NCBI GenBank assembly: GCA_003990765.1
Contig: RBNJ01000067.1
Location: 1-44,433 of the forward strand
Direction of reading: 5' to 3'
DNA: 44,433 bases
Source of the DNA: Jimgerdemannia flammicorona
Lineage: Eukaryota
The notes below the pieces were generated by a model. It was not told where the DNA came from, did no database searches, and was given only the letters and a program-made list of their open reading frames with translations. Made by a program: the position numbers and the translations under genes. Below are positions 4,647 to 40,309 of this stretch, in pieces. How positions within the stretch are numbered: position 1 is the first letter of the stretch; each line of letters starts with the position of its first letter.

Positions 4647-6591
4647 CAATCGAGGAACGGTGTTGCTGAGCGCAGCCCAAGTCGGCCTTTTGACATCGAT
4701 GAACCGTCACAAAATGTCAACTCCAAAATCGTTTGTACGTTTAGATTAAGTATCTTTTGGTCGATCGGGTAGTCGGTGAATGTTTGCTGACCGGGTTCAA
4801 CCCCACGCGAAGCCAAAACAAACACAGAACCGCTTTAGGAACTCAAATATCAGGTGCAAAGGATGTAATACCGCGAAGCTTGACCAATCCAAAGAATTTG
4901 AGTACGCAGGCCTCAAAATCGATGCGAAAGAATTCACAATGGCCGTAACGACCGATCGATAACTAGCTCTGACGACCGAAGCTGTAATTGTCGGGTTGCG
5001 ATCGATCAGTTTGATTTCAGGGGGGGTGACCCATCCGATTTGAGAAGCTGAAAATAAACTCACCAAATAAGGCATTACAAGAAAAAAGTTACCGCGGACT
5101 GCGTAAACTAAGATTAGAAGGACCAAGATAGCTTATGAAGAGTTCGATAAGATATGCGGCGAGGGTTGAATCTGGCGTCAGCGGAAACTATGAATAGCTC
5201 GGCATAGAACAATCTATTACTTAATTGATTATCATAAATAGCAAGATTTTATAAATTACACCTAATATATTAATACCATATAAAATATAAAATAGGAACT
5301 ATCTAGATTACAACTGAATAGTAATAAAAAATTAGCAGAATTTATTAATCTATAATATAGTTAAAAATATTGTTATAATATTTTTACTATTATTATAATT
5401 TTAATTAAATAAAATAAAAAGCTAATATATTATTAATTATATAAAGTTTTTAAGCTTAGAAATATTTATATATTATGATATACAATATATATATCTTTTT
5501 TACAGAATACACTGCTTAATATACCACTTAGTTATCTTATATGCTATTTATCTTTTTGTCTAACAATGTTCTGGCTTAATGTTCAGTTTAACTGCTGTTT
5601 AATTTATTTATATTTCTCATTTATATCAAGTTGAAGTTTATGTATTATTGATGTTTATATATTATAAGTCATTGGTCACATAACTAGATATTCAGAATGG
5701 TGAAAGGTGAAAGTACATATATTGTGGATTCTGACATACTGATGGTTATCCTGGTGTTCTTTAGTGAAGTTTTCTGGCAAATTGGCAATCTTATATCTTA
5801 AATTCCATGTAGTCTGAGGTCTTATATCTGATTTTCATAGTAGTGGTTCTTAACTGACTGTCTTGTATTCTTTTGTGACAATTTTTATAGTAGTGACAGT
5901 TCATATCTTGAGTTTTATAATGATTTTTATATCAATTTCTAAGGTAGCAAGAGTAATTTCTTAACTCTTAGAAGTAGTGTATTTCTTTGTAAATTTCTTT
6001 TACTTCAAACTATCTGACTGAAGTTTATTCACTCTTGTTTTGAAGATATTTATATATATTTCTACTATATCTTAGTAGCAAGATCTAAATATACTATTGG
6101 TTTACTGGTAGCAGTACATCAGTGGCAAAGACTATACTAATGGGGTAAGATTGGAATACTTTTATTCTACACTACTGATAAAGAATGTTTAAATAATAGA
6201 GAAGACTATTCTATATTTATTCTATACTGCTGGCAAAAAATATTAATCTCTATCTTAAAAGATATAGTACTTTTTATCAGTAGTAAGCAAATTATCTTAC
6301 TGAGTTATAATTTCATTATACTACTCTTTAAAGAGGAGAAGTACTGACCAAGAAGTGAGAAGATAGAATAATGACCAATTATCTTCAATAATATTTTCTA
6401 ACCCTTATATAGCTTGAAGGCAGACTGAAGATTGTTCGATTCTTTGTTGTTCTTTTTCTAAGAATTCATCAGTTTGAACATCTTGAGATACTATGGTAAT
6501 TTTAATAGTAAAGTCTTGGTGTTCTTCTTCTTCTTAGATAGAAGCTTCTGGGACTTCTTAGTTCAGTTCCTATATAACGTAATGTGACATA

Positions 6592-7114
6592 TAGTACTCT
6601 GAATGAGTTAATTCAGATAGGATTTGAATCTCATCCAGATTAACTCAGATAAGATTTGAATCTCATCTAGATAGATTTGAATCAACTATTGTTTTGATTT
6701 CTGAATTTAATGATCTTTATATCATTTGAAAGCTCTTAATAAGGTCTTTCTAATGATACTAAGAATATTAAAATTGAATTACACATTATCAAGATATTAA
6801 GAAAAACATTCTATTTAATGAAATTTCCAAAATTAGTAAATTAAATAATTTCCAAAATTAGCAATTCAGATGGTTTCCTTTATAACTCAGCAACATATGA
6901 TCTAATTTCAATATTCTTAGTATCATTAGATAGGCCCTATTAAGGGCTTTCAAATGACATTAAGATTATCAAATTTGGATAATTATTTATTGAGTTATTG
7001 ATATAAACATTTAATTGTCTAATTTGAAAATCAACATAATAGTTGATTTGAATCCATCCAGATCTGAATTAATTCAAATCCAATTTAGATTAAATTAACT
7101 TGTTAGGAGCACTA
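6592..7114. mobile_element. hAT-like MITE (523 bp) with a long internal inverted repeat
   Basis: TIR TAGTACTCTGAATGAGTTAATT / AATTAACTTGTTAGGAGCACTA. 8-bp TSD gtgacata (6584-6591) / gtgatata (7115-7122). ~6700-6790 is an inverted copy of ~6895-6980. Termini are related to the MITE at 1961-2270. Confidence 0.8.
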
Positions 7115-7483
7115 GTGATATATAACTAATAGAGTAGTGGATGGTCATAGTAGCTTCTATAGATGCTTTGATAGTAATAGATAGTTCTTCAAAGATTTCT
7201 ATAAGACTTATTAGATGGCTTTAATAGTTGTCTTGGAGAGGAGTGGTATAGAAGTCTGGTAGAGTGGATTCAATTTGTTGACTTTCTATAGTAATATGGT
7301 TGCTTCTGATATAATCAATGACTTTAGCTTCCATCTAATTGACTTCTTTAGTAGTGAGATAGACTATGTTTCTAGCAGTAACTCCTTATAAGTAAGCTAT
7401 AGCCTAGAGTATATGGCAGAAGATTTGGTAGATATGAAGGGCTCTCTTGATCAGCCAGTTGATAGTTAATAGTTCAGCAATAA

Positions 7484-10400
7484 ACACTCTCTCATTACCT
7501 TTCTCTGGTAATATTCAGATTATACAAACTTCTGACAATACTCAAGACATTATTTTTGGAGAAAAGATAATAGCAATATAGTAACTGACAAGTATTCTAA
7601 GATATATACTAGGCAGGGCAGCCCTAGTATATTTAACTGGCAATATATGGAGAGAAGTCATAGCTTGGGGGAAAGTATGTAGGACTTACTGGCAGAAGAA
7701 TATAGAAGGGGAGAAGACAGTATTAGGAGATAGGAGACTGGGAGAATAAGTTTTACAGATAAGGTAAAGAAGAGTCATCTGATGACTAGACTAGAGAGCT
7801 GACTGAGGAAGGGTAAGGAGATGGTGAGGACTGTAGAAGCTGATGGAGCAGCCTATGGTGGTGAGAGCAGTAGGGCTGAGAGAGTAGTGACTGGAGAGAG
7901 TGGGACTGCTGATGGTAAGTAAACTGCTAATCTGGAAAAAAATTCAGATATAATGGCTGATGATAGATCTAGACAGAGGGGGGGTATAAGGCTTAGAGAT
8001 CTGGTAGATAGTGTAATGGGCCTGGTAGCAGTACTATTACTCAAAAAATTGAGATCAGAATTTACTATCATATTATATTTCCAAGACTTGGTAGTGATGG
8101 TAAGAATGATTCTGAGACTAAGGTGAAGAGAGCAGTATTGGTGAAATTCTTAAAGAGTCTGAAAGAGGTGAAGGTCAGCTTTGAGAAAGAGGATATACTA
8201 TTGGAAGTAATAGAGAAGAGAGTGGTAGTAGGAGAGGTAGTGATCTCTATGACCCAGTGCTTGCACTGGAATCTCTGAGTAGTACAGCTGATAGTGCTGA
8301 ATATTTCTATAGTATTGAAGGAAATTGCCAAGAGATTAATTGTTGAGGTCATCAAGGAGTATAGAGAAATTATAGATATTGAGTTTTGGGTCTGGGAGGA
8401 CACCAAATTCAGGACTAACAATGTAGATATCAGAGTGTAGCTGGTGGGCAAGAAGAATATAGGAAAGATAAGGAACTGGCCAGTGGTCCTCAAATGGAGA
8501 TCTGTGGAGTACAAGTTCTTGAGAGTGAAAGGGATACTAGAGAAAGAAAAGAACTTGCTAAAGGTATTAGAGGATCTAGCTAGAGCTATAAAGAGGAGAA
8601 AATTAGCATAGAAGGAGTTTGAGGTCAGAATAGTTGTAGAGATCATAAATGGCAAGAAGGTGTAACTGGACTGAGCAGCCTGGGAGAGAGTATAGAAGAG
8701 GTACATTCAGAAGAATCTATTGGCTAAGTTGGGAGAAGGGGCAGCTAGGGGAACTACCACTGATGAGGCTAGATCAAGAGTGAGTATCTGAGTAGAAGAG
8801 AAGAAAGCAGTACCAGAGGAAATCTCAGGTGGGGGGGAAGACATAGGACTGAGTATTATGGTGGAGGATGCAGAGATGATAGAGGGGGAGAGGAGTACTA
8901 GGTGAGGCTGAAGGATATGATAAATTGCAGGATATACTAGAAGTAGATTGAGATGAGTTAATAAGGAGAAATATAGAGAGTAGACAGGTAGAAGGAGAGA
9001 AGAGAGTGATCTAATGAGTGGTAGAGGCTGAGGTTGAGGAGAAATGGCTATAGAAAACACTTGAGAATATGGTAGCTGAGGAGCTAGAGAAAGGACTTCT
9101 AGATACTGAGTGAGAGATACTGAAGTAAAATTCTACAGAGTGAGGAGGTGCTAAGAAAACTCTGTGATGAGATAATAGTAGCAATACTGAAGATTAAGAC
9201 ATATCAGATAGATGATGATAGAGAGATGATACTTCTGATGATTACAAATAACAGAGCTATATATATATAGAGCTCAAAGAAAGGGCTGGCTAAGTGGCAG
9301 GTAGTGTGTGAGGAGTACTGAACAGAGATAGAGGCTGTGGATAGTATAGATTATTAGGAGATCTTGGAGGCACTAGAGACTCAGTAGAGAGAGATAGATG
9401 AACTAGAGGTAGAGAGGAATCTTGATGTTACTGGTGATATAGCAAGTATGGAATTATAGAGTAGATAGCTATTCTTTAAATAACATTATTTAATATAAAC
9501 AATATAACTAGAATATCATCTTTGAATATCAATGGGCTATGGGGAGCAGTGAGGTGTCAAAATATCTTTGGATAGCTGAAGGGAATGGAAGCTGATCTGT
9601 TCCTACTATAGGATAGTGAGTGTGATAGAGACTTAGATATTCTGAACTAGATAAAGGAATGGGGTGGTGTGGCTATTTGGCAAGGATGTGTGGGCATTTT
9701 GGTTAGGAAGGGTAAGAGGGATATTAGAGATATTGGATACTAGAGGAGTAGAGTAGAGTGGGGAGTTTGGAAGAGACCAGGCTAGAGATTCTTGATAGTA
9801 GAGTCTTATTATTATCCAGCAGAGAGAGGGGAGAGAGTGGAATGGATTCAAGGGCTACAAGAGTCTGGAGCATTGGTGGAGGCAAGAATTGATTGTCTAG
9901 AAGGAGACTTTAATATAGTATATAATAAAAAGATAGACAGAACTAATGGGGAAAGAGAGATAGCCAGTAAGAGTAGTAATATGGAAGCCTGGAAGGAAGT
10001 CAAACATCTGAGCTCTCTAGTGGATATAGAGAGGATTGGATGGAGAGATTGTAGAGTTTTTATCTATTAGATGGCAGGACTGGACTCAAGAATTGACTGA
10101 ATATTGACTGCTGATTGCTGGAGAGTTGATATCTAGAGAACTTTGGAAACTATTTAGTATCTGTAGTCAGATCACTGGGGTCTTCTAGGAGAGGGGTATT
10201 TTGGGAAAAGTAAAGAGGGACCTGGACATTGGCAACTGAATACCTCTTTACTAGAGGAGGCCTCTCTATGGGAGGTATGGGTGGTAGATATTAGCTCTAG
10301 GGTTTTTGGTTAGCAAGCAGAGAGGCTGAGAATTGGGGATTACTAGATAAGATTGAAATCTGAGATATAATAGTACTGGGGAGAGGCAGGAAGGATATAG

Positions 10401-13248
10401 AGTGCTCAGAGAAAGAAGCAAGTAAAGTAGATCTCTCAGAGATTGGCAGGGTTATTAGTGATTTGGACAGATCTACTGAAGAATAGTAAGAAAGGAAATT
10501 GGTAAATATAATAAATCAGACTAGAGGTAGAGAAGCTGAAGGATATATTAAGACAAGAGAAGGATCTATAGATTAAGAGCATAGTAGCCTAATTATAGTA
10601 GTAGAGATTGGAGGAGGGAGAATAGTCTACTAAGTTTTATCACAGCTTCTACAGATAAAGAGGATATGGCAGCAGTGAGAGAGAGTTTTGAATGAGGCTA
10701 GGGTGTTGGTTGTTAGGATATCAGAGATTCTGGATCAGTTGAGCAGATAGTGGAGACATCTGTAGAGCAAGGAGGATAGAGGGGTAGGGGTACTGAATAT
10801 TGACAGACACTTGGAGAAATAGTACTCTGATCTGGCAGTAGGCTTAGGTGATCTTGGTACTGCTGTTTAAGAGGAAGAGATTCAGCAGGTTCTGATGATA
10901 ACAAGCTCCAGAATAGTACTAGAAGAGGATGACTTATAGTGGAATTTTTGAAAGAAGATGGCAAGAGTTGAGTTAATTCTAAAGAAAATAATGGCAATGT
11001 GTGATTAAGTGATAGACTTAGGGGCATAGATTGGGAGGCAGAGCTTAGGTCTTATAGCTCTGCTGTTTAAGAATAAGAGGAGAAGAGAGGAGTGGAAGAA
11101 CTGGAGACTGATCATGTTTCTGAATATAGATTGCAAACTGATCATAAAGATCCTAGTGGTTAGGCTGTAAAGAGTGGCTCAACAGGTTCTGGGGGCTGGG
11201 CAGAGAGGATTCATAAGGAGATATCTGATTAGAGACAGGACAGTCTGGATGTATGGTATTATTAAGAGAGCTCATACTACTGAGGTAAATAGAAGGCTAG
11301 TTTTCTTAGACCAAGAGAAGGCCTATGATAGAGTCTGGCAAGTGTGGTTGAAAGGGGTGCTAAAGTACATTGGGGTCTCCCCTGGGATCCAGCAGGCCTT
11401 GGTTGGTCTGCTGGAAGGAAGTTGGGCAGCAATTATAGTGAATAGACACAGAGGAGTTTCATTCTCTCTGAGCAGAGGAGTGCTGCAGAGGGATCTACTG
11501 TTCCTGATTCTGTATACACTGTCTCTAGAGTCTTTTTTGGATAGAATATGATATAAGGTGAGAGGATTAGATATTCTAGAGGTTAATTGGAAGGTGGGAG
11601 CCTTCACTAACAATATGGTAGTTGAGCTGGAGTCAGTTGAGAATATTACAATACTGAAAGGTATAGTAGAGTGATATGAGGGATACTCAGATACTAAGCT
11701 CAACTGGTATAAGTGTGAGACTTTGGTGTTGGGAGGAGAGATAGTAGGTAGGGATGTCATTGGAACAATTGTCTCTGTGAGAGAGGCTGTATACTATCTG
11801 GAAATCTACTTTTTAGTATATAGTTCTTTGCTGCTGTATAAGTGGTGGGAGCAGCAGTTGGTGGAGTGGGGAAGTACTCTCTTGGAGTAGAGTGGTTGCT
11901 ATATATATATCTCTGATGGGAAGAGTGATAGTGTTAAATATTTACTGATTGCCTAAGCTATGGTATTTAGAGTACTATCTGAACTTTCTGACATAAATGA
12001 TCAAGCAATTGTTGAAGATAGTCAGGACCTGAATATAGGTAGGATAATAGAGTCAGATTGGTTAAGAGGTATTGATCTGGCCAATGAACTGGAGAGGCCT
12101 GGGTCTGGTGGATTTTCTCAAGTATCTTCACTGCTTAAAAGTATGATAACTGAAGCAAGTAAGCAAGTTGAGGGATAGAGAGTGGGTTCCCCTCATACAG
12201 AGGATGTGGAAAGCCCAGTTCTCCCCCCAGGGTACAACTGGGGATCTTTTATCTCTGGTGGTATTGGAGGAGAGTCAGAGGATGCATTATAAGGTATTCT
12301 GATAAGGAGTGGCTAATAGGGCACACTATATTGATCTCTGATATCAGGATATTGAGAGAGAGAAGTAATAGAGACCCCAGATATAGAGGTAGAACTACCT
12401 TCTGTTAGGTAGGGTACCAGTGGATAACTTCTGCTTAGAGGATAGCATAGAGTGTCTTTGAAAATACAGAAGAGATCTGTGGCCTGAGATATGGTAGGGG
12501 GTAGGAATTAGAGAGGTGTGGAACTGAAACAGTATTTGGCTGTAGGGTAAGCAGGTGGCAAGATGGATTCCCCCTAAGTTCTGGATAGTATAGTGGAGAT
12601 TTCTATAGTGTAATGTTATGTTGAACTACCAGATAGATTATTTGGTAAAAGGAGACATCCAGGAGTATAAGGAGTATCTGAATATCAGATAGGAGAAAAA
12701 AGTAATACAGACTCATGAATATTGATTAGGAGAGTGTAAGGTGATAGGTGACTTTTGGAGAGAGATTGAGATATGGCTGAGATGACACCCACCAGAGTTA
12801 GTGGTAGGAGAGAGATGGGGTGACCTCTGGAGGAGATTGGTGGAAGGATTGGGAGATGAGTGGTTGATATTAAGATGGGTACTAGTGATTTGAGTTGGGC
12901 TTACAGGACATTGGCTACATATATGTATTTGAGGAGGATTGATAGTTGACTTTGGGGGTAAGAATAGCTAGATAAGAGTGGCTGATGATGAATATGTTGA
13001 CTGAGTGGTGGAGGAGTAGAGGTACTGGTGGGAGATACATATCAGAGATAATTAGTAGAGATAATCTGTAGGAAGAGTGGGGGGAGAATTGGAGTGACTA
13101 GGGGGTTGGCAGTGTTTTGAGAGAATGATGAAAAGAAGAGAGAGATTCTGAGTGAGGTTGAGTAAGGGGGTTCATTTGTATTAGTATATTATAGACAGTT
13201 TGGTAATAAAGTAGAAGTTCTTATAACTATAAAAAAAAAAAAAAAAAA
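7484..13248 (+). mobile_element. Full-length decayed L1/Tx1-like LINE, copy B
   Basis: ORF1 remnant from ~7578, then ORF2. AATAAA at 13205 and poly(A) at 13231-13248. 18-bp TSD ttaatagttcagcaataa (7466-7483) / ttaatagtttagtaatga (13249-13266). Confidence 0.93.
9495..13150 (+). pseudogene. LINE ORF2: APE endonuclease, reverse transcriptase and C-terminal CCHC remnant
   Basis: APE motifs SLNINGL, DLFLL*D, GDFN, SRID, SDH and the L1/Tx1-type GPGHWQLNTSLL. RT motifs NWRLI..LNIDCK, QRGF, DQEKAYDRV, GVLQRDLLF (<-GVPQGDPLS) and AFTNN (<-AFADD). Many stop codons. Confidence 0.9.
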
Positions 13249-14049
13249 TTAATAGTTTAGTAATGAGATCTTCCTGGTCATATTCTTGGGTTTCATTATA
13301 GAGATAGTATTCAATCTCATAGTTATATCAGAGAGTCATTTGATAAGTAGTGTTCTTGAGCTGCTATATCATTATATAGTAATAGTTAATAAAATGTTCA
13401 AGGTCTTTGATATAGAAGTTCAGATTCTCAGTGGTATCAGGGCACCAGGTAGCCATTTTGATAGCTTTGAGGATAAGACTCTTTAGACTCAGTAAAGGAA
13501 TACTGTGGCAGAAGGTCTGGTTAGAGCAGTAGAAAAGAGATATTATATTCTTATTTGTTCTAATTCTTTTTAACACACTGGGTCTAGGTTCTTTAAATAA
13601 TATAGCCTTCATTTTAGCTCAGATTATTATTATTCCTTTTAGTTAGATCATCAGACAGTATCATCTAATTATTATGTCATAAGGTTGGGGTTAACATCTG
13701 ATTAAGGTAATTATGAGATTTATCATCATTGTTCCTTATTTCAGTATTATCAGTTATATACATCACATCTGCTTCTTACAAAATTAGAGCTATTCTTAGT
13801 AGTGATAGTTATATAGGATTGAGTGGTCTTAACTCTAGAGATGAGCAGAATGTTAGTATATTTGCAAGAACTAGCCATCCTTATCTAGGGTGAGAGCTCT
13901 CATTGTTATGGCTGGGGATTTGAACCTCTTAAAAATAATATTCTCTATAATCTGAGACAATTTTTAGTAGCAACATCTATCATATAGATGAGCTTGAGAA
14001 TGATTCCAATGATATTAACTTCTTGAGTTCCAGATAAAGTATCTATTAT

Positions 14050-15300
14050 CCTCTGATAGAGGTGATACAGATGAAGTTCAAATGTGTTTTACTTCTCTTT
14101 AGTAGTAGAGTATTATGTAGTTGCAGTGTATCTTGGTCTTGAGTAAAAGTCCATCCATGATCTTGAGCTAGTAGGTGTAATTTATGAATACTTAATGTAT
14201 AAGATAAGGTCCTTTCTATTTTAGTTCAAGTTTGGTACTCCAGTTTCCTTTAATGATGGTATAGTATACCAATACTTATTGTTCAATAAGCAGGAGTTTA
14301 AGGTTGGCTTTGTAGTCATAGTACTTCTTTTGTCATTCTTGTGCTTTGATAATAAATCCTCATACTTGCTAGTATACTTCATGTAATTAGGTGATCTCTT
14401 CAGTGACTCATTTTGTCAAATTTAGCTAGATTGGTTCAGTGGGGTCCTATACTTCTTAGCCATATATTAGATAGAAAGGAGTTTATCAAGTAGTAGTTAT
14501 TTTTGAAGTTTGAATACTGAATAAGATTACTGGAAAATATATAGATACCCTAGTTAAGTTAATCTCAGGTTCTACTGAGACCTTACTTAATGGTCTGGTT
14601 TATTCACTCAGTAAGTCTATTTATCTGAGAGTAGTAGGCTATTGTTAGCTATAGCTTGATCTTGAAGTTGCTTGCAAAGGTTTTTATAGCTTTATTGATA
14701 AATTCCCAGCCTTAGTCTGTGATGATTTTCTTAAGAATACTATAATGGCTGAAAATTTCATTATACAGAATTTCAATAATTATCTGAACATTGGCAGTCT
14801 CAATGGCAAAGGCTTCAGGCCATTTTGTCAAGTGATCTTCAATAGTAAGAATATAGTATCTTTCTTAACTGATTACTGGGAGAGACCTAATAATATCTAT
14901 TCCTAGTCTTTGAAAGGCTCAAGCTAGTACTGTGATCAGTATTAGAGATACTTTATTACTTAGCTTTTATTGATAGCTTTGGCAGATATTATATTGTTGA
15001 ATGTATGTTAAAATTTGTTTTTTCATTTTAGGCTATCAGTATTACTTTTTAATTCTTACAATAGTGATTCCAATTTCTTGATATATATTCTGGCCATAGT
15101 TTGTTATCAGGATTTTAAGTATTTCTTTTTTTCTTGAGATGCAGATATACTGATCTCCTTTTACTCTCCAAAGTTTGTCATTGCCTTTCTGAATTTTTTT
15201 AAAGTTTCTTTGAATAAATAGCTTGTGGGCTGGCTGAATTTCTTTCTTAAAACTCCTATGGTACAGACTCCAGATGAGGGTGAGACATAATTCTTGGTTC
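14050..15300 (-). pseudogene. Ty3/Gypsy integrase (rve core plus GPY/F tail)
   Basis: FQRLGIDII..LP...YILTIEDHLTKWPEAFAI...IITD*GWEF at ~14700-14920; KGPYLIH at ~14200. No chromodomain seen. Confidence 0.9.
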
Positions 15301-15399
15301 ATTTAGAAGAGCAGGAAGTAGCCTTTACTTATAGGGGCTCTTTCTCTTCTTATTGATTCTGTGAGATTCTTGACAGGGTATCAATATTAGAATTCTTAG

Positions 15400-15780
15400 T
15401 ACCTTTCTTGTAGATAATAGTGAACTAGTATTCTTGCAAGGATATAATCCACCTAGCAAAGATTTTTAAAGGTTCTGGCTTATTAAACAACTATTGTAAA
15501 GCTTAATAGTCTATAATGAGAGCAAATCTCTTTCCTAGGAGATAATGTTGAAAATAGTCTACTACTTATACTACTGCTAGATATTTTAACTTAGTGACTC
15601 CATAGTTTGCTTGTAATTTATGTGTAACTTTGCTAGCATATTCGATAACATGCTCTCTCTTTTGGTCATCTTGCTGGGATATAATTGATCTAAGTTCTAG
15701 AGCTAAGACATTAGTTGCTAGGATGAATAACTTGTTGAAGTTTGGTTGAGCCAGAATAGGTGCTTCAGTAAGAGCCTTCT
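15400..15780 (-). pseudogene. Ty3/Gypsy RNase H
   Basis: APILAQPNFNKLFILATN...VIEYASK...NYGVTKL...HYLLGKRF...ARWIISLQEY. Confidence 0.88.
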
Positions 15781-15899
15781 TAAGTATATTAAATGACTTC
15801 TGTTGGTCTTCCTTCTAGTAGAATAGTTGGTTCTTCTTAGTAATATCTTATAGTAATACTGTTTTATTAGAAAATCTTGAGATAAATTACTAGTAGTAA

Positions 15900-16560
15900 G
15901 ATACTAATATGAGAAAGAATAGAGTCTCCTTTGCTGAGATTAGTGTTGAGTAGTTCTTGACTTTCTCTATCTTATAAGGGTCAGTATGGGTTTTTTGAGC
16001 TGAGATAACATATCTTAGATATTTAACTTAGTGTTTTCTGAAGAAGCATTTCTTAGTATTGAGTCTAAGTCCCAATCTTCAAATAGTGTCAAATACTTCA
16101 CAGAGGTCTTGTAGGTATTATTTGAATATTTCAGAGTAGATGATTATATCATCTATATATACTAGTATATTTCTTCTAATAAGGTCTTAGTAGATATGGT
16201 TAATTATTTATTAAAATGAGACTAGTGTATTATAAAGTCCAAATGGCATACAAAGATATTTATACTATCCTCATCTAGTGATAAAAGCTGTCTTGTAGAT
16301 ATCATTCTTAACAATAGATATTACTTGAAATCTTTGAAATTGGTCTGTAATAGTTATATATTTGGCTTTTCCAAGAGTATTAAGGAGGTCATCAATTCTT
16401 GATAGTGGGTAGGCATTCTCTATAGTGATCTTATTGAGTTTTCTGAAGTTTACAACTAGTCTTCATTCTTTTTTCTTAGTACTATAATTACTGGTAAAGC
16501 CCAAGGGCTTAATGAGGATCTAATAACTCTATTTTATAATATTTCTTCTATATGTTATAT
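15900..16560 (-). pseudogene. Ty3/Gypsy reverse transcriptase
   Basis: PWALPVIIV...NFRKLNKIT...YPLSRIDDLL...KTAFIT...MPFGL...VYIDDIIIYS (YIDD at 16148-16159). Confidence 0.95.
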
Positions 16561-17179
16561 TCAAACTCAATTAGGTAGTATGGTGTTTAGTATGGACACT
16601 GTCAGGTTGGTTTTATATCTTCTGTATATAACATGCTCTCTATATTAATATGGTGGGAAGTTATTATATATAGTGATAAATATATCTTTATATTCTTCTA
16701 TCAACTTTTATATCTATTGTTACTGATTCTCTATTAGAGTTGTCTCAATATTGATGGCTTTAATTGCTGAGTCTTCCTCTCTAATACTGTCAGTCTTACT
16801 GGAGAGGACTTGCTGTTTTCTAAGAATTCAAAGACTTCTTCCTCATAGGTGTCTATCAGTGATTCAAAGTATACTAGTATTGTTTCTTTAGAAATTGTTA
16901 CTATTTTGAAGTCCAAATTTCTGATAGGAATGTGAATTGGTAATATCTGATCATAAATTCATTTTTCAGCTAAAAGGAGGTGATACTTTTCTTGAAGTTC
17001 AATTGAAGGCTTAAATATCAAATTATTGACATCTTCTGATAGATATATGTCTAGGCTTCTTTGTTGATAAGGCTAAAGGATGACATCTTCTCTTGTTCAA
17101 ATGGAGTGGCAGAAGTATGGTTTTATTTAATAGAACTAAGCTACTATTACTAAGTGAACTTCAATAAGTGGTTGAGTTC

Positions 17180-17580
17180 TATTGATACTTCTAAAGCCTC
17201 CTTGTCCTCTCTTGGTGCTGCTGAATTGGTCTACTTCTTGGATAGTTAGTTGTGATGTCTTGATGAATAGAATCTGACAGATAGCTTCTAAGGAATTAAA
17301 GACTTAGTGATTTCTGCTACTGTTGTGGATGATAACCTTTAGTGGGCCTTGATAATCTTGGCCAATAACTCCTCCTTCTACTATAACTTCTTTGGCTGCC
17401 AGAGACGATCTTGATACCAGTTGACCATAGTATCCAGATAATATAGTAAGTATAAGTTGAATTAAAAGTCTTTGTAGTTCTGAGATACAATATTGCTTAG
17501 TAGAAAAAACAGAGATCATATCCAACTGATCCTTCTATTTGTACAAGAGGAGGTTGTGCCCAAGATAATAATAACTTGAC
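17180..17580 (-). pseudogene. dut: Retroelement-encoded trimeric-type dUTPase between protease and RT
   Basis: All five motifs in order: GSVGYDL; GYYGQLVSRSSLAAK; GGVIGQDYQGPLKVIIHN; AICQILF; RGQGGFRS. One frameshift after motif 1, plus stops. Confidence 0.92.
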
Positions 17581-18699
17581 TTGAATAACTAGCTGAGTTT
17601 GAGGAATAGTACTTCTGTGGTTACCATTATAAATGAGAGCTCTATATATTCTGGCTTGAAGAATAGCCAATATACTCTAGTCTTTAGATTTCTGGTATAA
17701 TAGAATTCTGTTCTTCCAAGTAGATCTAGAGCTTCTATGAAGGCAAAGGTAAGGTTGACTCTTTGATTGTCTTGGTAAGGATTGCAATACCAGTAAATGA
17801 TTACAAGTAATTCTAATAACAGATCCCAAATAGAGGTCTTGCTCTTGGCTTTACAGTCTCCTTCATGGTTGATCTGTTTGCATTTTCAACAGGCCTAGTA
17901 AATTCAGAGTTCTTGTAGAGTAGGATTCTTTCTCTTAACTTGGCTCTTATATATAGACATTATTACTAAGGTAAATACTTCAATATTTATACTAATAATA
18001 GATAAAGATCTTTCTACAATTATAGTGTCCTTGCTTGACAAATATCTCATTCTGCTGCTTGACTTTCTTACTTATAAGTATCTCCTTCAATATTTCATAA
18101 GTAGGTAGGATAATCTGAAGAGTTTGGGTGATAGTATGAATATTATTGTTATCTCCTTCAATTGTGAGAGTTTTCAGAGATTGGTGAGAAAAGACCTTCT
18201 GTTCTTTCTTATAGGGTTTCTTAAATACCTTTAGGATTGGTAGTTGTATTTGTCTGAGTACTAGACCTCATTTTAACTTATCTTTGTCTTCTATTAATAG
18301 TATTGAAATCTTCTTAAGGTCAAGAATTTGACAGTTACTGTAATCATCTCTTAGTGAGTGGAAATGATTATAGTGTTCACACATGCCTAAGTAGAAAGCT
18401 CACATGATTTTGTTTTCCTTCGGTGGTGGTGGTTGTATGGATGGTCCTGCAAACTCAAGTATTACTTGTTCACTAATAGCTCATTAAATACTTTCCTCCA
18501 GGTTCTCAGTATCAACAACTCCAATAAAAGGATCTTCTTGACCACTTTCAGAGTTTTGAGGGACATCAAAATCACTTCTTAGTTCTTATATGAAATTGGT
18601 TTTGCTTTTATCTTCTATAGAGATAGATATAACTTTATATTTTTGCTATTTTGTTTCAGAGGTCTGACTTGCTTTTCTTAAGAATTCTCTTGATTCAAT

Positions 18700-19050
18700 T
18701 AATATCTTGTACTTCTATCTATAGAAGGTGAAGACTAGGAGCTATTTCTTGATATCTATATTGATTCCAACTCAGTGTAACCAATCAGTTCCTAAGATCA
18801 GATCATAAGAGGTTACTGGAGTTATCATGGCTTATAGTATATTGAAGTAGACTTTTCCAACTTGAATAAATATATCTCTGACTAATCTAAGAGAGATAGA
18901 TGCTGATCCATCTGCTATGATGACTCTTGCTTTAGTTTCTTCATCAATTCTCCATTTAATCCTCTCTAGTATTTACTGGGTAATAATGTAAACTGCTGCT
19001 CTAGTATAAATAAGGATTCTGGCATTTTCACTATATACTTTTCCATTGGT
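18700..19050 (-). pseudogene. Retropepsin-like aspartic protease
   Basis: ARILIYTRAAVYII (<-LIDTGA), IIADGS, YDLILGTDWL. Confidence 0.8.
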
Positions 19051-19699
19051 GAGTCTTGTAGATTGATATTCTTTACACCAGTTTTTATAAACTATATGGA
19101 TAGTGCTAGGCTCTAGTATATATAGTCCTTAAACAGAAATTCTCTTAATATCTTCTTTGGCTTTCTTTAGGAATTTTCACCTAACTTCTGGTATATTCTT
19201 GAGAACATGTTCAAATATAAGGCCTATATTCTGTATATAGATATATTTCTAAAGGAATGCTACTTCATAGAGTCTACTATTTCTTCAATGTCTAGATCTC
19301 TTATAGTAAGCTCTCTCATTTCTATTGGGTATTTTATTAGCCAAAGATTCTATACTCATGTACTCATCTTCTTCAAGATTAGGCAAGAAAGTACTTCTTG
19401 ATATTCTTGAAGACCTGGCCTTTGGTTCAGAGGTATCTCTTCTGACTTGCTTGTCATTTTTCTGAAGAGTATCTGAGAAGGAGTGATCATATCTTGGGTA
19501 CTTGCCTGTGAATACTGTCACTGATAGTGGTGGTAGAAGAGGGGTCCTAGGAGGTCTTTCTCATCCTCTGGTCTGTGTTGGGGCAGTATCTTAAGTCATC
19601 TTAGAAGGGAAGGCTTCATAGTAGATATCCTCTTAATTATGAGACCAGGCAGCTTCTTCCTCTATTTCTTGAGTCTCTTCATCTATTTGAATGAGGTTG

Positions 19700-20935
19700 A
19701 CATTTCTGTCATTGGGTGGGGGTTGTTTCTTTGGGCAGAACCTCTAAATATAGTCTTGATTTCCACAGTTGAAATATGTTAGAGCATAAGTACTTATTGT
19801 TGATGGATCTATAGTTATAGCTAGTAGGGCCTGAGTGGAGCTTCTATTGTCTTGCTATCAGTAGTCTGATTTACTATCATGGCAATAATCTTACTGTCTT
19901 CCTCCTTAGTTCTTTAGCTGAGTGACTGCAATGACTAAATTCTTTATTTGCTTAGTAAGTATTATTATAAAGTCTTCTTAGACTCTTGATAAAGGCTGCT
20001 GCTATTGCTGTTGCTATCTGTACTGAGTTGAGATTGCAGATAGGGATCTTGTCTGATAGTTGGCCAGCTGTACTCTTAGGTAGACATTCTCTTGTTCTAT
20101 AATCATTCTATAGATTCTTAGAGTTTCTACTTAAACTGGTTCTTGCTACTCTTGTATCTGCTGAGCTAATCTATAGTCTGCTTCTCAACACCCTTGTGCT
20201 CTAGTAACTTGCTGCTCAATACTTCAATAATACATTCTGATAACTTGTCTCTGAAGCTCTAGAAATATTTCATTGAAGAAGACTAGAGCTAATTGAACTA
20301 TAGGTTGCAAGCTTGCCTTGATCATCTGGACTTAGATTTGATAATAGAAAGCCTTAGGGGTTTTATTGGCAGCTTGGCTCATATAAGTCAAAGCTTCTTA
20401 TACTTCTTATTGATACTTGAGATTATTGAATTAAGTGTGGAATTAGATCTTATAGATATTATATCTGTCTGCATAATCTCCATTTGCTCAAAGATTGTTA
20501 GTTTGTTCTGTTGTATGGATTTTTTCTCCAATTTGTCTTGCTTGGTTGTACTTCTATAGGGCAGGACCTCTTAGGAGTGATTCTACAATTCTGAGCTTTC
20601 TCTGGACATCTCACTGCTTAGCTGTTACTTATACTTTGATTTCTCTAAGAAATTCCTCAATATCTTCACTGTCTGTACTATAGAATTTCTGAAGATAGCT
20701 CATCTCTGATTTGTTTTCACTATCTGAGTCTGGTTCTGGAGTAGAGTTTCTTAATAATGCTTAAGATAGAGATAGTGGAGATACTTGATAAACTGATAGT
20801 ACTGATAGGAGACAGTATCTTGGTGAAGGTATAGAAAGTCTAGCTCTTCTAATTAAAGTAGGTATAGAGGTTCTTAACAGTGGTAGTTCTCTGATTGAGT
20901 GATAATGATTACTAAATACTGAGATTCTGAGAGTT
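19700..20935 (-). pseudogene. Gag of element Y (capsid plus CCHC knuckle)
   Basis: LQKFYSTDSEDIEEFLRE...LLRGPAL at ~20550-20700. Knuckle TYFNCGNQDYI*RFCP (<-CFNCGNQGHIQRFCP) at ~19730-19780. Confidence 0.8.
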
Positions 20936-20939
20936 CCAT

Positions 20940-21215
20940 TCAGTATTGTGTAGCAAGACCTTAATTTCACCTTTGAATCTTTGGTCTATAACTTTTCTAA
21001 CTACAGAGTCTCTCTTCTTTAGCCAGACCACTTTTTTCTATAAGATAGATATAGATTCCTTTAGAGACTTCCATTCTAATATCTGTACTAATAGTCAATT
21101 ACTTGCCTGGTTTGATAGTTACTTCTATACTAGAGTAGAGATCATAGCTAGCATTAGATTTATATACTTTGTTTGAAATTTTTGCAATTATATAGAATCT
21201 TTTAATCTTGATTTT
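20940..21215 (-). pseudogene. dut: Second dUTPase (motifs 1-3, truncated), in frame with the upstream Gag knuckle
   Basis: KIKRFYIIAKISNKVYKSNASYDLYSSIEVTIKPGK*LTISTDIRMEVSKG...EKSGLAK / VVRKVIDQRFKGEIKVLLHNT, i.e. DAGYDL, xSGLA and GVIDxxFxGEI after reversing G->A changes. Confidence 0.85.
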
Positions 21216-21324
21216 TTTAGAGATTTCTTTGAGATTATCTCCTATCATAGTGATGGTATGTGAGAAGAATAATTGTTTGTTTATATTAGTCTTCTTGTTA
21301 GGATATTTATGAGATATATGTTCT

Positions 21325-21332
<8 letters not shown>

Positions 21333-21409
<77 letters not shown>

Positions 21410-21559
21410 TTACTTGGACTTTGTCATTTATTACCATTCTCTCCTCCTACTACTCAATATTCCTAGAAAGTTCCCCCCCTACTCTCTTATATTTGAAAAC
21501 TACCTTGTCACTCATTACTCTAACTTTCCTCTCACTCTGCCTATATATTTTCTTCACCA
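21333..21559 (-). mobile_element. 5'-truncated LINE end (~150 bp plus a long poly(A))
   Basis: Minus strand ends tggtaataaatgacaaagtccaagtaactt-(A)n, like copies B and C. TSD atatgttctctcttttt (21316-21332) / atatattctctcttttt (21560-21576). Confidence 0.8.
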
Positions 21560-22048
21560 ATATATTCTCTCTTTTTGTAGTAGAAGTATGCTCCTTTCTT
21601 TATAAGTTCTTCTATTTTCTTATCAGATAGTTTTTTAAATCTATATATCTTATGGTCTTGTGGACTCATTCTGGAGTTTGTACTTCTTCTTGAATTGATA
21701 TTATTTATCTTTATTGTTATTTCTGTTGTCTCTTGGTCTTTAGGCTATAAGAATAGTATATATATTCTAGTAACAGCTTATCCTAAGCACTATTGCTCAT
21801 ATAGACAATTATAGATTATCCTTATTTACAAATTTTCTCTGATAAATATCTGGAGATAGTACTGAAGAAGTAAGTAGCTTGGGTTCTTTTTATAATCTGT
21901 TCTTATTAGCTGTATTTTACTTCTATAATATTCAGAAAAGTTTCCAGTCTTATAGTAAAGACTTTGAGATTTTCTTTTCCATCATTATAGAATTAAAGAT
22001 TCTTAAGCTTAGTTCTGACTTCAGCAATATAAGCAGAGCTATAGAACT

Positions 22049-22080
22049 GAGTCCAAGTAACTATAAAAAATAAAAAAAAA
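22049..22080 (+). mobile_element. Micro-insertion: terminal ~15 nt of the LINE plus an A-rich tail
   Basis: gagtccaagtaactataaaaaataaaaaaaaa flanked by a perfect 10-bp TSD ctatagaact (22039-22048, 22081-22090). Confidence 0.85.
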
Positions 22081-23576
22081 CTATAGAACTATTAGATAAT
22101 TAGTTTCTTTAGGCTTATAGTAACTAGGTAGACTTTATAGTTAGAGCAATTATCTTCTTCTTCACTTATATTGATTTTAGCACAGGTTTTCCAAATGAGA
22201 GGATGTACTGATAGATTATACTACCACTGGATAGCTGTATCTGTAAAATGGGTAGTGATATTCTCTACTTATAAGCCTGTAGTTATATATATAAAAATCT
22301 TCAATCTTATAGTATTTGTTGTTATTAAGAGTATTGTCTGAGTTCTGATTATTATTCTATCTATTAGTATAATAATTGGTATCAACCTATTCTATAAATA
22401 TTATTACTTGGTCTACTTTACCTTTAAATAAAATAAAGCAGGAGCATTTTGTAGATTTGTTTATTTCAATACTGAGATAATAGACTTGAGTGAATATAGC
22501 TATTTAGTCAGCCAATATTGCTATTTTGTTATCTGCTGATATTATTCTACTATCTCTATTATTTATTTAGTAAGATAGTTAGAGTTCTTCTTCTATTGTT
22601 ATGATATATTGATCACAATTTGGAGTTAACTCTTCTATGATATTACTGAGATAGATGAGCTTATAGGCTAGTAGTTTTGATAGAGTAACTATTGGATCTG
22701 TCATAATTTTTGATAGGCTTAATATTCTTGGTAGTAGTTCTGTAACAGTACTGAGATCACCAATGTCTAGTTCAAGTATCTCTTCAATTATTCTCCTAAA
22801 TCTAGATAATGTAGTAGAGGTCTTACTAGATTCAGTAGCTTGTAGTTCTAATTGCTAGATTATTCTTACTTATGTATAGAGAATTTAATAATAGAAGTAG
22901 GATTTCTTTTAATTAATATAGTATCTCTTGTAGTTCAGAAAGGCCTTGACTTTATATTAGTAATTATTGGGGAGAAAGTTCAAAAAATGTTCACTTGTAG
23001 TCTTAATGAATTCTTATATATATTTCTCATAAAAGTGTCTACCAACTAGCTTGTTGAGATTCTCCTTAAGTTTAGTAGTATAGGGGACTTCTTTGTTGAG
23101 TGTGAGGAAGATATTGAATACTTTTTAAATGGTTTCATTGTTGAGTTTATCAAACTCTTCTTAGCTGGTATAAGTTTTGGTCTACTTAATTATGATTCTA
23201 TTAGATTCTTCAGCTTGAGTCTCAGGAGTATCTAGGGTAAAGGTGCTTCTTAACTATTACTAGCAATGTTGTCAATATTGACTAATTTTGATTATCTGTA
23301 GTAGGTTCTTGAGAGAGGTTGCTTGTGGGTATAGAGTAACTTCCATTACTATTAAATTATAATAAAACTATATGCTGATAGAATTAATATATTATAGATA
23401 ATCAAACTGACTATTGGCCCTAAGTTCTGAGTTTCTATAAAGAAGCACTGAGTTCCAATTGTCTGTTACAGTAGAGTCTAGATATCACTTTCAGATTCTT
23501 GTACTGATAGAAGTACCATACTTATATTTTAAATTGATCAGGCTTAGAATTATTAACAAGTTAGGTCGGAGAGTTC

Positions 23577-23785
23577 TGTGATAAGAATACTGTTTTATTC
23601 TTATATTCAGGGAAAGCAGAGTTGCAATTACAACATACTTAGTACAGAAAGTATTTATACACATTTGAGGCTATGACTAAATATAGTGCACTGGGTATAT
23701 CCATATGTATTTATACTATTTTGAATAACTATAACTGTTAGTCAGAAATTTCCAGTAGCTCGTAGGTATATAACAATTTGTTACA
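23577..23785 (-). repeat. Candidate 5' LTR of element X
   Basis: TGTGA...TTACA ends; minus-strand TATAAATA (~23650) and AATAAAA (~23595); lies upstream of gag X at the edge of the CpG-free block. No partner LTR or canonical PBS found. Confidence 0.4.
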
Positions 23786-23955
23786 ATACTATTTGAATAA
23801 GTTCAAATACTTTCTAATTAATCTTAGATGATTATATATTATTAAAAAAACGTTATATTCCAATTTTATTTACACAATAATCATTACAAATAATCTCTAC
23901 TTTTGTTTTTGGGTTGCTTTTATATAATAAATGTTTTTGTATTAATTGTCCTAAT

Positions 23956-25611
23956 TTAATTTCGTACACGCCTTTGAGAAGGCGTTGCACAGATAGCTTT
24001 CTTAATCCGCTTTTCCAATTCCTCCATCAACCCGGCCTCCGCCAACCCCTCCTCGATTAAGGCATCCCTCCATCGGATCATTGGTATCTTTTTCATATGT
24101 GGGATCTTTCCCAGAGTATTCCACGCCCACTTCAAAAGTTCAAGATCTCGCGCCATCGCTGCTTGTTGAAAAGCCCGCTTGGTCAATCTCAACGCCCGCC
24201 TCTCCTCGCGCTCCCTCAAGAATGTATCGAGCAGCCTGACGACCTCGATGACGCTCCGGATCTCCTTGCGATGACACAGGTAGTATTGTACTAACTCCGT
24301 TGAAATGTGGGTGGCGTCAATCGCCTCAACGACTTTGGGGTAACGGTCGATACAAACCAGAAGCGCGTTGACGTCGTTGTTCCGGATTGCGACGTAGACA
24401 ATTGCAGGTGTCGGCTGGTACTCTGGGAGGACACGCACGACGTAGTCTAGCACACCGAAGTCGGAGCCGCGGATAGCCTCGTTGATGGCGTTCAAAAGGT
24501 TTTGGCGGCTCCCTGAACTCCCGAAAAGCCTGTCGTTCAGCATCACCCTGATGGCCTCTTCGTCATCATCACCCATGCCATGCACGCTCCTGTCTGCGTC
24601 GCCATGCATTTCATACACACTCAACATGCCCCACCAGCCGATTCTCGGCAACCACGTCTCTCGACACTCGACGCACATGTCGTCCGGAAAAATGCCCAGA
24701 GACTGCATGGGTTGAGGTGATGCAAGGCCCCAATAAGGCCAGTGCTCGTGGTACCCGATAGGTGCCTCCCCGTCGAGGAAGTCGATAATATCCTCGTCCC
24801 AAGTCTTGAATCTCACGCCGCGCGCGTGCAGGTATTCAAGTGCAGCAGGCCATCTACGAAAGAGGGCGAGTCGCAGGATAATGTCTGGCTGGTCCTCCAT
24901 CTCGTTTAACCGGGCGTGCTCGTAAATATATTGAACGAGCTCGAGCCTCCTGCAATTCCCGAGCATGTTCCAGTCGAGGAAGGCTGGGCGATTCAAGCGC
25001 GCGAGGTTGGATTGCTGCAGCCACTCGAGTACATCAAACCGGGCTGCGCGGGTCGCCCAGGAGCGGATCTTGCTAAAGCATAGCATGTGTTGAGCAAAAC
25101 CGGCTGGCGAAAGCTTACGCTCCCTCGCAACATCAAAGAGCGTGTACAGGTACTTGAATACTATAAGGTTGTGCTTCGCGACATTCCAGCAGCTGTATTC
25201 GAGTTTCTGGAGGTCCGAATGGGCGCGGCGTGACGATAGAAGGTGGCGGAAGAGGGGGAGGTCACCAGTCCCTGCAGCTTGCTCTAGGGCTGTTGTTACG
25301 CGGCAAGGGTAGAAATGGATACTTCTAAGAGGCGGGATCTTGATGGCGAAGGCGAAGAGCCCGGCGGCCGAAGCGTGGTCGCGACTAGTGAAAGAGAAGA
25401 TGTATTCCACGAGCTCGGGAGAAAAGGTGGAGAAGAGTTGGACCATAAAGTCGACTCGTTCAGTGGGTGGTGTGGGGCCCATGGGACGAGGTGTGTGAGG
25501 GACGAGATGTGGGGATGGGACGAAGTGTGGGGGGTGGGTGAGATGGGACGGTGGGGTGGGATGGGACGAAGTGTGAGATGGGACTAGGGATGGGATGGGA
25601 CACGCCACCAT
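23956..25611 (-). CDS. Hypothetical protein with an F-box-like motif and divergent ankyrin-like repeats (551 aa; the start may be a downstream Met)
   Basis: Long CpG-rich intronless ORF. FSPELVEYIFSF; repeats AAGTGDLPLFRHL, AARFDVLEWL, LELVQYIYE, AIRGSDFGVLDYV, AAMARDLELLKWAW. Confidence 0.75.
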   Translation of the reverse strand: MVACPIPSLVPSHTSSHPTPPSHLTHPPHFVPSPHLVPHTPRPMGPTPPTERVDFMVQLFSTFSPELVEYIFSFTSRDHASAAGLFAFAIKIPPLRSIHFYPCRVTTALEQAAGTGDLPLFRHLLSSRRAHSDLQKLEYSCWNVAKHNLIVFKYLYTLFDVARERKLSPAGFAQHMLCFSKIRSWATRAARFDVLEWLQQSNLARLNRPAFLDWNMLGNCRRLELVQYIYEHARLNEMEDQPDIILRLALFRRWPAALEYLHARGVRFKTWDEDIIDFLDGEAPIGYHEHWPYWGLASPQPMQSLGIFPDDMCVECRETWLPRIGWWGMLSVYEMHGDADRSVHGMGDDDEEAIRVMLNDRLFGSSGSRQNLLNAINEAIRGSDFGVLDYVVRVLPEYQPTPAIVYVAIRNNDVNALLVCIDRYPKVVEAIDATHISTELVQYYLCHRKEIRSVIEVVRLLDTFLREREERRALRLTKRAFQQAAMARDLELLKWAWNTLGKIPHMKKIPMIRWRDALIEEGLAEAGLMEELEKRIKKAICATPSQRRVRN

Positions 25612-28043: not shown

Positions 28044-28970
28044 TTACAAAGTGGAGATACTCGGACTCCTCTTGAGAAGGCGTTTGATAGAGTTCCTCTT
28101 CTTCGGACCATGGCCGTTTGGCTCCTGTGTTGGTTCCTGTGTCTTTTCCACGACCTCGGGTGGGAGGAATGTCATTACGCCCTTGAACGAGATTTTGGGA
28201 TCATCCGAATGAATCTTCACCAACATCCGCTGGCCGGGAAAATTCGGGTCGAGAATCTTCTGGTGGTTCCGATACCCGAACACGGTCTCGAGGTGAATCT
28301 GATTGCTCTCGTCGAAGCGCCGCCACTGCCCGCGGTGCTCGAATCGCCACACTGGAAGGAACTGGCGATGGCAGTCGCGGCCGAGGTGGAGAATCTGCGG
28401 CGGATGTGGTGTTTCCGGCGATGTCGACGTGGATGAGGACGAGGGTGCATCGTCCGACACCTTGTGAGACGATCTCGGATCGCAAGTGCAGGCTTCGCGG
28501 AGATGTATTGTGACATATCTTTCAGGGAAGTTGGCGTCGCGGACGGTGATGCCGTTCAACTCTCTGTCGTGAAAGTACTCCTCGAGGAGGTGCTGATTGA
28601 GCTCTTCTAGCTGCATCATTCGACCGTCCGCGGCACCGAAACTCCATACTGGCTCCACGTCGCGGTGGACGCTCATGGCATCTGCTGGTATGTCCGCGAG
28701 CACAGTTTGTTGGCATTCGTCCTCGTACGGGGTGGGTTTGTGGTCCTCGTAATTGAAGTTCTCAGCTAATGTCATGGACGATCGCGAGGCAGGGTGGGCT
28801 CCTGTGGCCGGGTATGCTGATCGGTCTTCCGAATGGCGTGGCGTTTTGAATTTTATGGATTTTGTGTCATCAGCGCCCGAATTCTTTGAGAGGCGGCGGA
28901 AGAACCCCTTCGCCTTGCTCTTGATAGACTTTATGGTATTTACGGTCTTGATACTCGAAGATTTTCCCAT
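28044..28970 (-). CDS. Hypothetical protein (308 aa) with an N-myristoylation-like basic N-terminus and a WWE-like C-terminal domain
   Basis: ATG at 28970 gives MGKSSSIK...KAKGFFRRLSK. VWRFEHRGQWRRFDESNQIHLETVF fits the W-W-E pattern. The upstream TTG extension has non-coding-like composition. Confidence 0.7.
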   Translation of the reverse strand: MGKSSSIKTVNTIKSIKSKAKGFFRRLSKNSGADDTKSIKFKTPRHSEDRSAYPATGAHPASRSSMTLAENFNYEDHKPTPYEDECQQTVLADIPADAMSVHRDVEPVWSFGAADGRMMQLEELNQHLLEEYFHDRELNGITVRDANFPERYVTIHLREACTCDPRSSHKVSDDAPSSSSTSTSPETPHPPQILHLGRDCHRQFLPVWRFEHRGQWRRFDESNQIHLETVFGYRNHQKILDPNFPGQRMLVKIHSDDPKISFKGVMTFLPPEVVEKTQEPTQEPNGHGPKKRNSIKRLLKRSPSISTL

Positions 28971-33253: not shown

Positions 33254-33421
33254 CCAAGCTACACGTCCGCCCGGCCAAGCTACACGTCCGCCCATCCAAG
33301 CTACACGTCCGCCCATCCAAGCTATACGTCCGCCCATCCAAGCTATACGTCCGCCCATCCAAGCTACACGTCCGCCCATCCAAGCTACACGTCCGCCTAT
33401 CCAAGCTACACGTCTGCCCAT
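33254..33421. repeat. Minisatellite, 8 x 21 bp (CCAAGCTACACGTCCGCCCAT)
   Basis: Eight head-to-tail units with no spacers; this explains the overlapping repetitive ORFs in several frames. Confidence 0.97.
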
Positions 33422-35361: not shown

Positions 35362-35393
<32 letters not shown>

Positions 35394-37336: not shown

Positions 37337-37540
37337 CCCCAGCTGCCTGAGCACCTTCAATCACCTCATAGACTCAGGCAGTTCCATCTCAGATTAACTG
37401 ATCACTTACAAATCCCCTCTGCTCTATTCTCAGTACCTCCCCAGCTGCCTGAGCACCTTCAATCACCTCATAGACTCAGGCAGTTCCATCTCAGATTAAC
37501 TGATCACTTACAAATCTCCTCTGCTCCATTCTCAGTACCT
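37337..37540. repeat. 102-bp tandem duplication inside the RT region of LINE C
   Basis: 37337-37438 and 37439-37540 differ at two C/T positions; the region is single-copy in LINE B. Confidence 0.93.
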
Positions 37541-40232: not shown

Positions 40233-40240
40233 TTACTGGC

Positions 40241-40298
<58 letters not shown>

Positions 40299-40309
40299 TA
40301 CTGGCCAGT
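40233..40309 (-). mobile_element. Pure poly(A) insertion with TSD inside ORF1 of LINE C
   Basis: ~50 T flanked by ttactggccagt (40233-40244 and 40298-40309). Copy A has the empty site (gtcgccggccagtccc, ~546-561). Confidence 0.85.

Follow-up and report, generated by a model that had tools for sequence, protein, structure and literature searches.

Remains of two dUTPase-bearing Ty3/Gypsy retrotransposons in a contig of Jimgerdemannia flammicorona, and the families to which they belong

Contig RBNJ01000067.1 (C67) of the Jimgerdemannia flammicorona assembly GCA_003990765.1, analysed here over its full 44,433 nucleotides and called the window, carries on its minus strand a run of retroelement sequence with two Gags and two different dUTPases. 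This run is very probably made of two dead Ty3/Gypsy elements joined by a local deletion: the 5' stump of one, designated X (positions 20934-23788), fused to most of another, designated Y (20933 to about 5474). The original prediction had drawn the locus as one unit from 14050 to 23330 and offered two explanations: independent dUTPase capture by different retrotransposon families, or a chimeric double-Gag, double-dUTPase element. These limits have to be redrawn, because there are two elements and Y extends well beyond 14050, to a 3' long terminal repeat (LTR) ending near 5474, with interruptions by a long interspersed nuclear element (LINE) and a small insert. The presence of two families is borne out by their LTRs, which differ, and by copies elsewhere in the genome, which part from the window at 20934/20933. 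The chimeric element has to be abandoned: it lacks matching LTRs, and among 191 fetched loci the join is found at the window's own locus only.

Two families meet at a blunt junction

The assembly comprises 231 Mb and is fragmented into 35,354 contigs. A genome search with the X dUTPase gave 245 candidates, of which 40 were scored and 30 fetched (29 plus the window's own); 191 loci were fetched overall, some being one copy fetched twice. The junction comparison set consisted of 29 X copies and 10 Y copies. All 29 other X loci lose their match to the window at 20923-20944, each going on with the remaining half of its own dUTPase, and nine of the ten Y copies that reach the junction (from 20 long Y stretches) start matching at 20933, with a common leader of their own upstream. 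The X side was matched in 70 and the Y side in 15 of the 191 fetched loci, both sides in the window's own locus alone. The two LTRs are unrelated in sequence, the 5' LTR being X-type and the 3' LTR Y-type. Since a reverse-transcribed chimera would have like LTRs, the unit seen in the window never moved as one.

The join is most simply explained by a blunt deletion that removed 6.7 kb or more. X and Y, members of different lineages, would have lain close together on one strand, and the deletion would have taken about 4.9 kb from X (the second dUTPase half, protease (PR), reverse transcriptase (RT), RNase H (RH), integrase (IN) and 3' LTR) and at least 1.8 kb from Y (5' LTR and leader).

That this happened in the genome rather than during assembly is what we infer, and it counts against the deletion that the junction is known from the assembly alone, with no sequencing run listed. 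An erroneous join between two repeat copies is nevertheless improbable: the high number of contigs and the lack of reads for checking would favour it, but each copy is about 17% different from its nearest relatives, and X and Y have no common sequence at the join, which leaves an assembler little reason to cross over. Simple nesting, whether of Y within the X dUTPase or of X within the Y leader, is very unlikely, although nested inserts are common here (three lie within X and Y): the rest of X was not found after the Y 3' LTR, nor the Y 5' LTR before X, host-like genes flank both ends, and nesting, which could have preceded the deletion, cannot by itself remove both pieces. It is scarcely credible that the whole run is one chimera that moved with both its Gags and both its dUTPases, having arisen, say, when reverse transcriptase switched templates between RNAs packaged together. 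Both parts do lie on the same strand with no gap between them, but the first dUTPase is cut in half and the join occurs in one of 191 fetched loci, the window's own. Moreover, the LTRs, X-type at the 5' end and Y-type at the 3' end, do not match as they should if a single template had served for both in reverse transcription. Under the preferred reading, a local deletion between two dead elements, the locus itself is ordinary debris and not a new element type.

Anatomy of the two elements

Translations of the window were scanned with Pfam, stops being read as X, with a cut-off of 22 bits for the dUTPase family PF00692. Both predicted dUTPases pass it, at 29 bits for X and 65 bits for Y, and the interval 20940-21215, where the first had been placed, does yield a profile match. 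The X match (21182-21003, E 9.8e-7) covers profile positions 4-63, and the Y match spans 17468-17190 (E 6.5e-18). The X enzyme is thus real but not whole: the window copy breaks off behind motif 3, at 20934, and so has no motifs 4-5. Other X copies have a complete domain (PF00692 E 5.7e-12 in copy L115), with motifs 4-5 in decayed form.

Neither Gag in the window matches a Pfam family; zf-CCHC is matched in less decayed relatives of these Gags. The predicted X Gag with its CCHC knuckle stands by homology to relatives (tblastn match to the Gag of the sister family X2 at 22052-21831, E 1e-8), but its knuckle is split by the poly(A)-tailed insert at 21333-21560, which has a 79-nt A run and a target-site duplication of about 13 nt. 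The long X copy L115 shows what is missing from the window: dUTPase, PR motif, RT region, RH, integrase motifs, a Tf2-type SH3 domain and a second LTR, in an order read partly by Pfam and partly by eye. Its paired LTRs form a direct repeat, 80% alike over 345 nt. X is an old family, as none of the 134 X-like rows among 150 scored spans the whole enzyme without a stop. When alive, X would have encoded one polyprotein, Gag-nucleocapsid (NC)-dUTPase-PR-RT-RH-IN-chromodomain. Chromo was not matched in the one X copy scanned, L115, where SH3_Tf2-1 was matched.

The gag, knuckle, PR, RT, RNase H and integrase predicted for Y are all confirmed, PR, RT, RH and IN in that order on the minus strand by Pfam and Gag by homology (tblastn E 0.0 over 892 residues; the young copy L181 matches zf-CCHC). 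X2 likewise has the order PR-RT-RH-IN. A Pfam scan of copy L180 found no chromodomain on the Y integrase tail, and the Y RT falls outside the chromodomain group described below. Paired LTRs are deduced for Y from LTR sequence lying on either side in different copies. Just after the Y integrase, at about 13900-13930, a short stretch resembles a tRNA T-loop or B box by eye. Features of both elements are collected in Table 1.

Table 1. Features of elements X and Y in the window
Feature	Position	Strand	Evidence
5' LTR of X	23350..23788 (ends approximate)	-	X copy L115 carries the sequence at both ends; L113 matches to 23788
Decayed X gag to first half of CCHC knuckle (21588-21559)	21560..23330	-	X copies align across
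Poly(A)-tailed insert, short 3' end of non-LTR element	21333..21560	-	Other X copies jump from 21560 to 21332
Second half of X knuckle	21300..21332	-	Translation; joined directly to first half in other X copies
dUTPase X, 5' part (motifs 1-3, one frameshift)	20934..21218	-	Between knuckle and missing protease
X/Y junction, blunt (0-1 nt shared)	20933..20934	.	29 X copies and 10 Y copies compared
End of Y leader and gag Y, knuckle at 19776-19735	19735..20933	-	55% identity to open frame of young Y copy L181
Protease Y	18730..19044	-	PF13975 E 1.4e-4 and PF08284 E 7.2e-4, both below cut-offs; clear matches in young copy L181
Relic of small Cys/His module C-x-H-x(8-10)-C-x2-C	18310..18405	-	Own profile and tblastn with P0184, E 1e-4
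Cys-rich spacer, module to dUTPase	17586..18310	-	In frame with Gag-PR-dUTPase in young copies; no Pfam match
dUTPase Y, all five motifs, one frameshift in window copy	17180..17586	-	30 loci
Conserved post-dUTPase domain, about 115 residues	16822..17180	-	Common to Y, V and P0169-P0171
Relic of G GGA AAC -1 slippery site, end of ORF1	16815..16821	-	Heptamer counts across Y rows
Reverse transcriptase Y	15956..16570	-	PF00078 E 8.1e-19; own profile
RNase H Y	15428..15811	-	PF17919 E 2.5e-23, PF17917 E 4.3e-21
ATGA overlap, RT-RH stop / integrase start	15299..15302	-	Row counts and reading frames
Integrase Y, own frame	14081..15302	-	rve E 7.9e-7 (below cut-off), H2C2 E 0.02; 66% to young copy
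Accessory open reading frame (ORF) of Y, 5' half	13250..13618	-	55% to young copy L181, E 2e-35; no clear Pfam family
LINE-type insert in accessory ORF	7484..13248	+	Y copies jump from 13249 to 7483; RVT_1 E 5.9e-8
Accessory ORF of Y, 3' half, overlapping LTR sequence	7104..7481	-	50% to L181, E 4e-34
Small insert with inverted repeats in Y LTR	6594..7114	.	Y copies jump from 7115 to 6593
3' LTR of Y (minimum extent; 5' edge not located)	5474..7241	-	Same sequence upstream of leader in L091, L092 and L093

At least eight families carry a dUTPase

A whole-genome profile search with PF00692 returned 8265 first-look candidates, which are not copy numbers, and all 150 that were scored pass the cut-off. 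The genome holds at least eight dUTPase-bearing Gypsy families: X, Y, X2, W, Z, V, U and U2. In the RT tree, X and X2 are sisters (100/93) and join W and Z in one group (99/97), and Y stands apart (100/100). Chromo (PF00385) is matched in X2 (E 3e-14) and W. This chromodomain group of X, X2, W and Z has the order knuckle-dUTPase-protease in a single frame, and X2, W and Z show no frameshift between knuckle and dUTPase. Families Y, V, U and U2 lie outside the group; their dUTPase comes after the protease and before RT. Judged by the chromodomain matches in its relatives, X appears to be a chromovirus-type Ty3/Gypsy family; it weighs on the other side that the RT tree includes no named reference element.

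Among metagenome polyproteins, P0005, P0007-P0011, P0013, P0015, P0016, P0061 and P0075 have a dUTPase joined to Copia-type or integrase domains, labels that were assigned partly by eye.

Expression of Y and its post-dUTPase domain

In young Y copies, Gag, protease, the Cys/His module, spacer, dUTPase and a further domain of 115 residues all lie in one frame. This frame, ORF1, ends about 31 codons past an in-phase G GGA AAC; the heptamer G GGA AA(C/T) is kept in 29 of 39 Y rows and recurs in family V (L191). RT lies in the -1 frame (35 of 41 rows), and P0184, a 1343-residue relative found in a different assembly, stops at the same place, behind the post-dUTPase domain, and carries no RT. Judging by these frames, ORF1 would yield Gag-PR-dUTPase, and RT-RH would be reached by a -1 frameshift. 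A point against such recoding is that shuffled sequences fold as stably as the hairpin behind the slippery site (z +0.4 to +0.8; pseudoknots lie outside the model). The integrase frame starts at an ATGA overlap (ATGA in 12 of 18 rows, a decayed ATAA in 6 of 18), and the integrase may be made by stop-restart at AUGA. Stop-restart at AUGA is used by fungal victoriviruses, which are RNA viruses; the RH/IN border of Y resembles theirs in its overlapping stop and start. Literature searches found nothing on the Cys/His module or on a late frameshift of this kind.

The Y dUTPase would be produced in amounts like those of Gag, far more abundantly than RT. In retroviruses, about 20-fold more Gag than full polyprotein is made, and the position of the dUTPase sets the amount of enzyme, according to the available text of PMC4531489; this principle supplies a logic for the dUTPase site of Y. 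As in the dUTPase-bearing retroviruses covered there, the enzymes of X and Y may have been packed in the particle, where they would lower dUTP at the site of reverse transcription.

The post-dUTPase domain is predicted to be all-beta, with eight strands that start 130-137 residues after those of the dUTPase, and lacks the catalytic motifs by eye. Its alignment to the dUTPase by hhalign is weak (probability 2.7, E 0.017), a deep profile beats shuffles for two of four sequences (0/200 and 1/200; 56/200 and 27/200 for the other two), and fold searches with the domain were filled by the first dUTPase domain. With its predicted strands in register with those of the dUTPase, it is slightly more likely than not to be a catalytically dead second dUTPase fold.

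Origin of the dUTPases

Identity is 27% between the X and Y enzymes, 35% between those of X2 and Y, and 28-41% to the host type. The host dUTPase gene has four exons (three introns) and intact motifs. It is accompanied by one processed, intronless copy (loci L190:3602-4015 on contig C6287 and L192 on contig C33350), which implies that the host dUTPase mRNA does get reverse transcribed.

A dUTPase tree of 42 rows places the host and Z among cellular-type enzymes (92/81) and X, X2, W, Y, V and U outside, without resolving them. Approximately unbiased (AU) tests reject the host as sister: Y with host at p 0.017 and, barely, X+X2 with host at p 0.049 and Z with host at p 0.045. Grouping X+X2+Y is not rejected (p 0.23), nor is grouping the six families X, X2, W, Y, V and U (p 0.14). 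We somewhat favour the view that the dUTPases of X and Y come from a pool of retroelement dUTPases swapped between elements, and were not taken twice from the host gene. This view has to reckon with a poorly resolved tree (6 of 39 inner branches starred) and with soft results, nine AU tests having been run on 138 columns with two host tests near the 0.05 line.

Two separate captures from unrelated donors, the rival account of how X and Y came by their enzymes, are a serious but less probable option. The enzymes occupy different positions, are as dissimilar as stated above and are not grouped in either tree, and separate captures did happen in this genome, as Z shows with its cellular-type enzyme and no Cys/His module. 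The AU tests leave a common origin standing, however, and a module present in both lineages needs some exchange between them. Independent capture, as originally proposed, is not demonstrated: the two are not recent paralogues and neither is sister to the host gene, but a common origin keeps a p value of 0.23 and the shared module speaks for exchange.

A Cys/His module on both sides of the Gypsy tree

The module C-x-H-x(8-10)-C-x2-C follows the dUTPase in X, X2, W and P0058, and precedes it in Y, V, U, U2, P0004 and P0161; Z has none. Its profile scores 15 bits in the window relic and 33-46 bits in young Y copies. The profile built from X2, W and P0058 finds the non-chromoviral family U at 51 bits (shuffles reach at most 1.5), and a profile built on one side picks up members of the other with scores higher than those of 50 shuffles each; the X2/W-side profile does not find Y itself. 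Module identity between X2 and U is 51% over 35 columns, against 41% for RT. U (L119:4464) and U2 (L123:4379), both non-chromoviral, carry a module of X2/W type in front of the dUTPase.

Exchange between elements is the best reading of these sequence likenesses, strong constraint on an old short motif being the alternative. Against the swapping of enzymes between elements stands that a single clade of all module carriers is rejected (AU p 0.031), so that enzyme and module were not simply carried along as one fixed unit. A broader joint scenario is possible but doubtful: dUTPase and putative metal-binding module would have been handed on between chromoviral and non-chromoviral Gypsy elements of one host group and would stand in either order (dUTPase-module-PR in X, X2 and W; PR-module-dUTPase in Y, V and U), with Y and V bearing tandem active and dead dUTPase folds at Gag level and the frameshift moved behind them. 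If true, the scenario would provide a retrotransposon parallel to the duplicated herpesvirus dUTPases and would suggest that reverse transcription in this host is limited by dUTP.

Selection and decay

The element dUTPases were kept by purifying selection while the elements were active. Transversions fall at third codon positions in 75 of 96 cases in X2 and 15 of 18 in W, and young and old Y dUTPases differ by 67 synonymous to 45 non-synonymous changes, all counts being pairwise and not independent. Young Y copies are at odds with this, showing no third-position enrichment of transversions (10/35).

The C>T/G>A decay is strand-symmetric, with the dinucleotide rank CG > CA > CC > CT, and would fit host methylation or a process like repeat-induced point mutation after insertion. 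Because of this symmetry and context dependence it is no evidence for uracil stress in replication. Strong selection on retroelements against uracil, suggested earlier for this host, is plausible given the purifying selection, but the host itself possesses a dUTPase gene that looks intact, and the decay says nothing about uracil in cDNA.

Surroundings of the two elements

CpG is near-absent and open frames are few across 5.2-23.9 kb of the window. CpG-normal, host-like ORFs lie at 3285-4706 (leucine-rich F-box-type repeats, E 8e-6), 23956-25611 (no clear family) and 28044-29237 (WWE domain, E 9.5e-5). Three related LINE-type copies, 60-76% alike, occupy 1-1560, 7484-13248 and about 35370-41300. 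Small inverted-repeat elements at about 1972-2258 and 6594-7114 are recurring inserts in many fetched loci, and a tandem repeat with a 21-nt unit (8.2 copies, 94%) spans 33253-33424.

Relation to known elements

Several dUTPase positions in one fungal genome were already described in 2010; the gene layout of Y is unusual. In Postia placenta, PosPlaTy3-3, -4 and -5 illustrate three dUTPase positions among Gypsy families, for which separate sources were suggested (Novikova et al. 2010, PMC2864245, from the text available). Like the window families, they have the dUTPase at the start of Pol, as in X, and between PR and RT, as in Y; compared by description only, that text mentions neither a Cys/His module nor a frameshift behind the dUTPase nor a separate integrase. 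Tmt1 of Tuber melanosporum and elements of Phanerochaete chrysosporium, known here through passages in citing papers (PMC2864245, PMC5408684), are fungal Gypsy elements with the PR-dUTPase-RT order of Y.

Outside fungi, passages of PMC5408684 describe Juno, Vesta and TelKA of bdelloid rotifers, where one genome has several lineages whose dUTPase sits between PR and RT. Juno resembles X and Y in having an extra zinc knuckle beside the dUTPase, and the rotifer elements also have an extra ORF3; they differ in their animal host and in that the extra knuckle follows the dUTPase, and the likeness to the module is one of description only. The knuckle-dUTPase-protease order of X recalls the betaretroviruses MMTV (mouse mammary tumour virus) and M-PMV (Mason-Pfizer monkey virus), which make an NC-dUTPase (PMC4531489, in part). 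Unlike these, the X lineage has a chromodomain integrase in X2 and W, no env and, in X2, W and Z, no frameshift between knuckle and dUTPase. Entomophthora muscae is described as enriched in dUTPase, protease and knuckle domains in the part consulted of bioRxiv 2023.09.13.557621.

The genome offers thousands of dUTPase-like matches and at least eight Gypsy families, with two dUTPase positions and two expression levels. If exchange of the module and a dead second domain are both borne out, they would show domain traffic between distant Gypsy lineages. Such families are natural material for the question of why dUTPases occur in retrotransposons and from what source they come.

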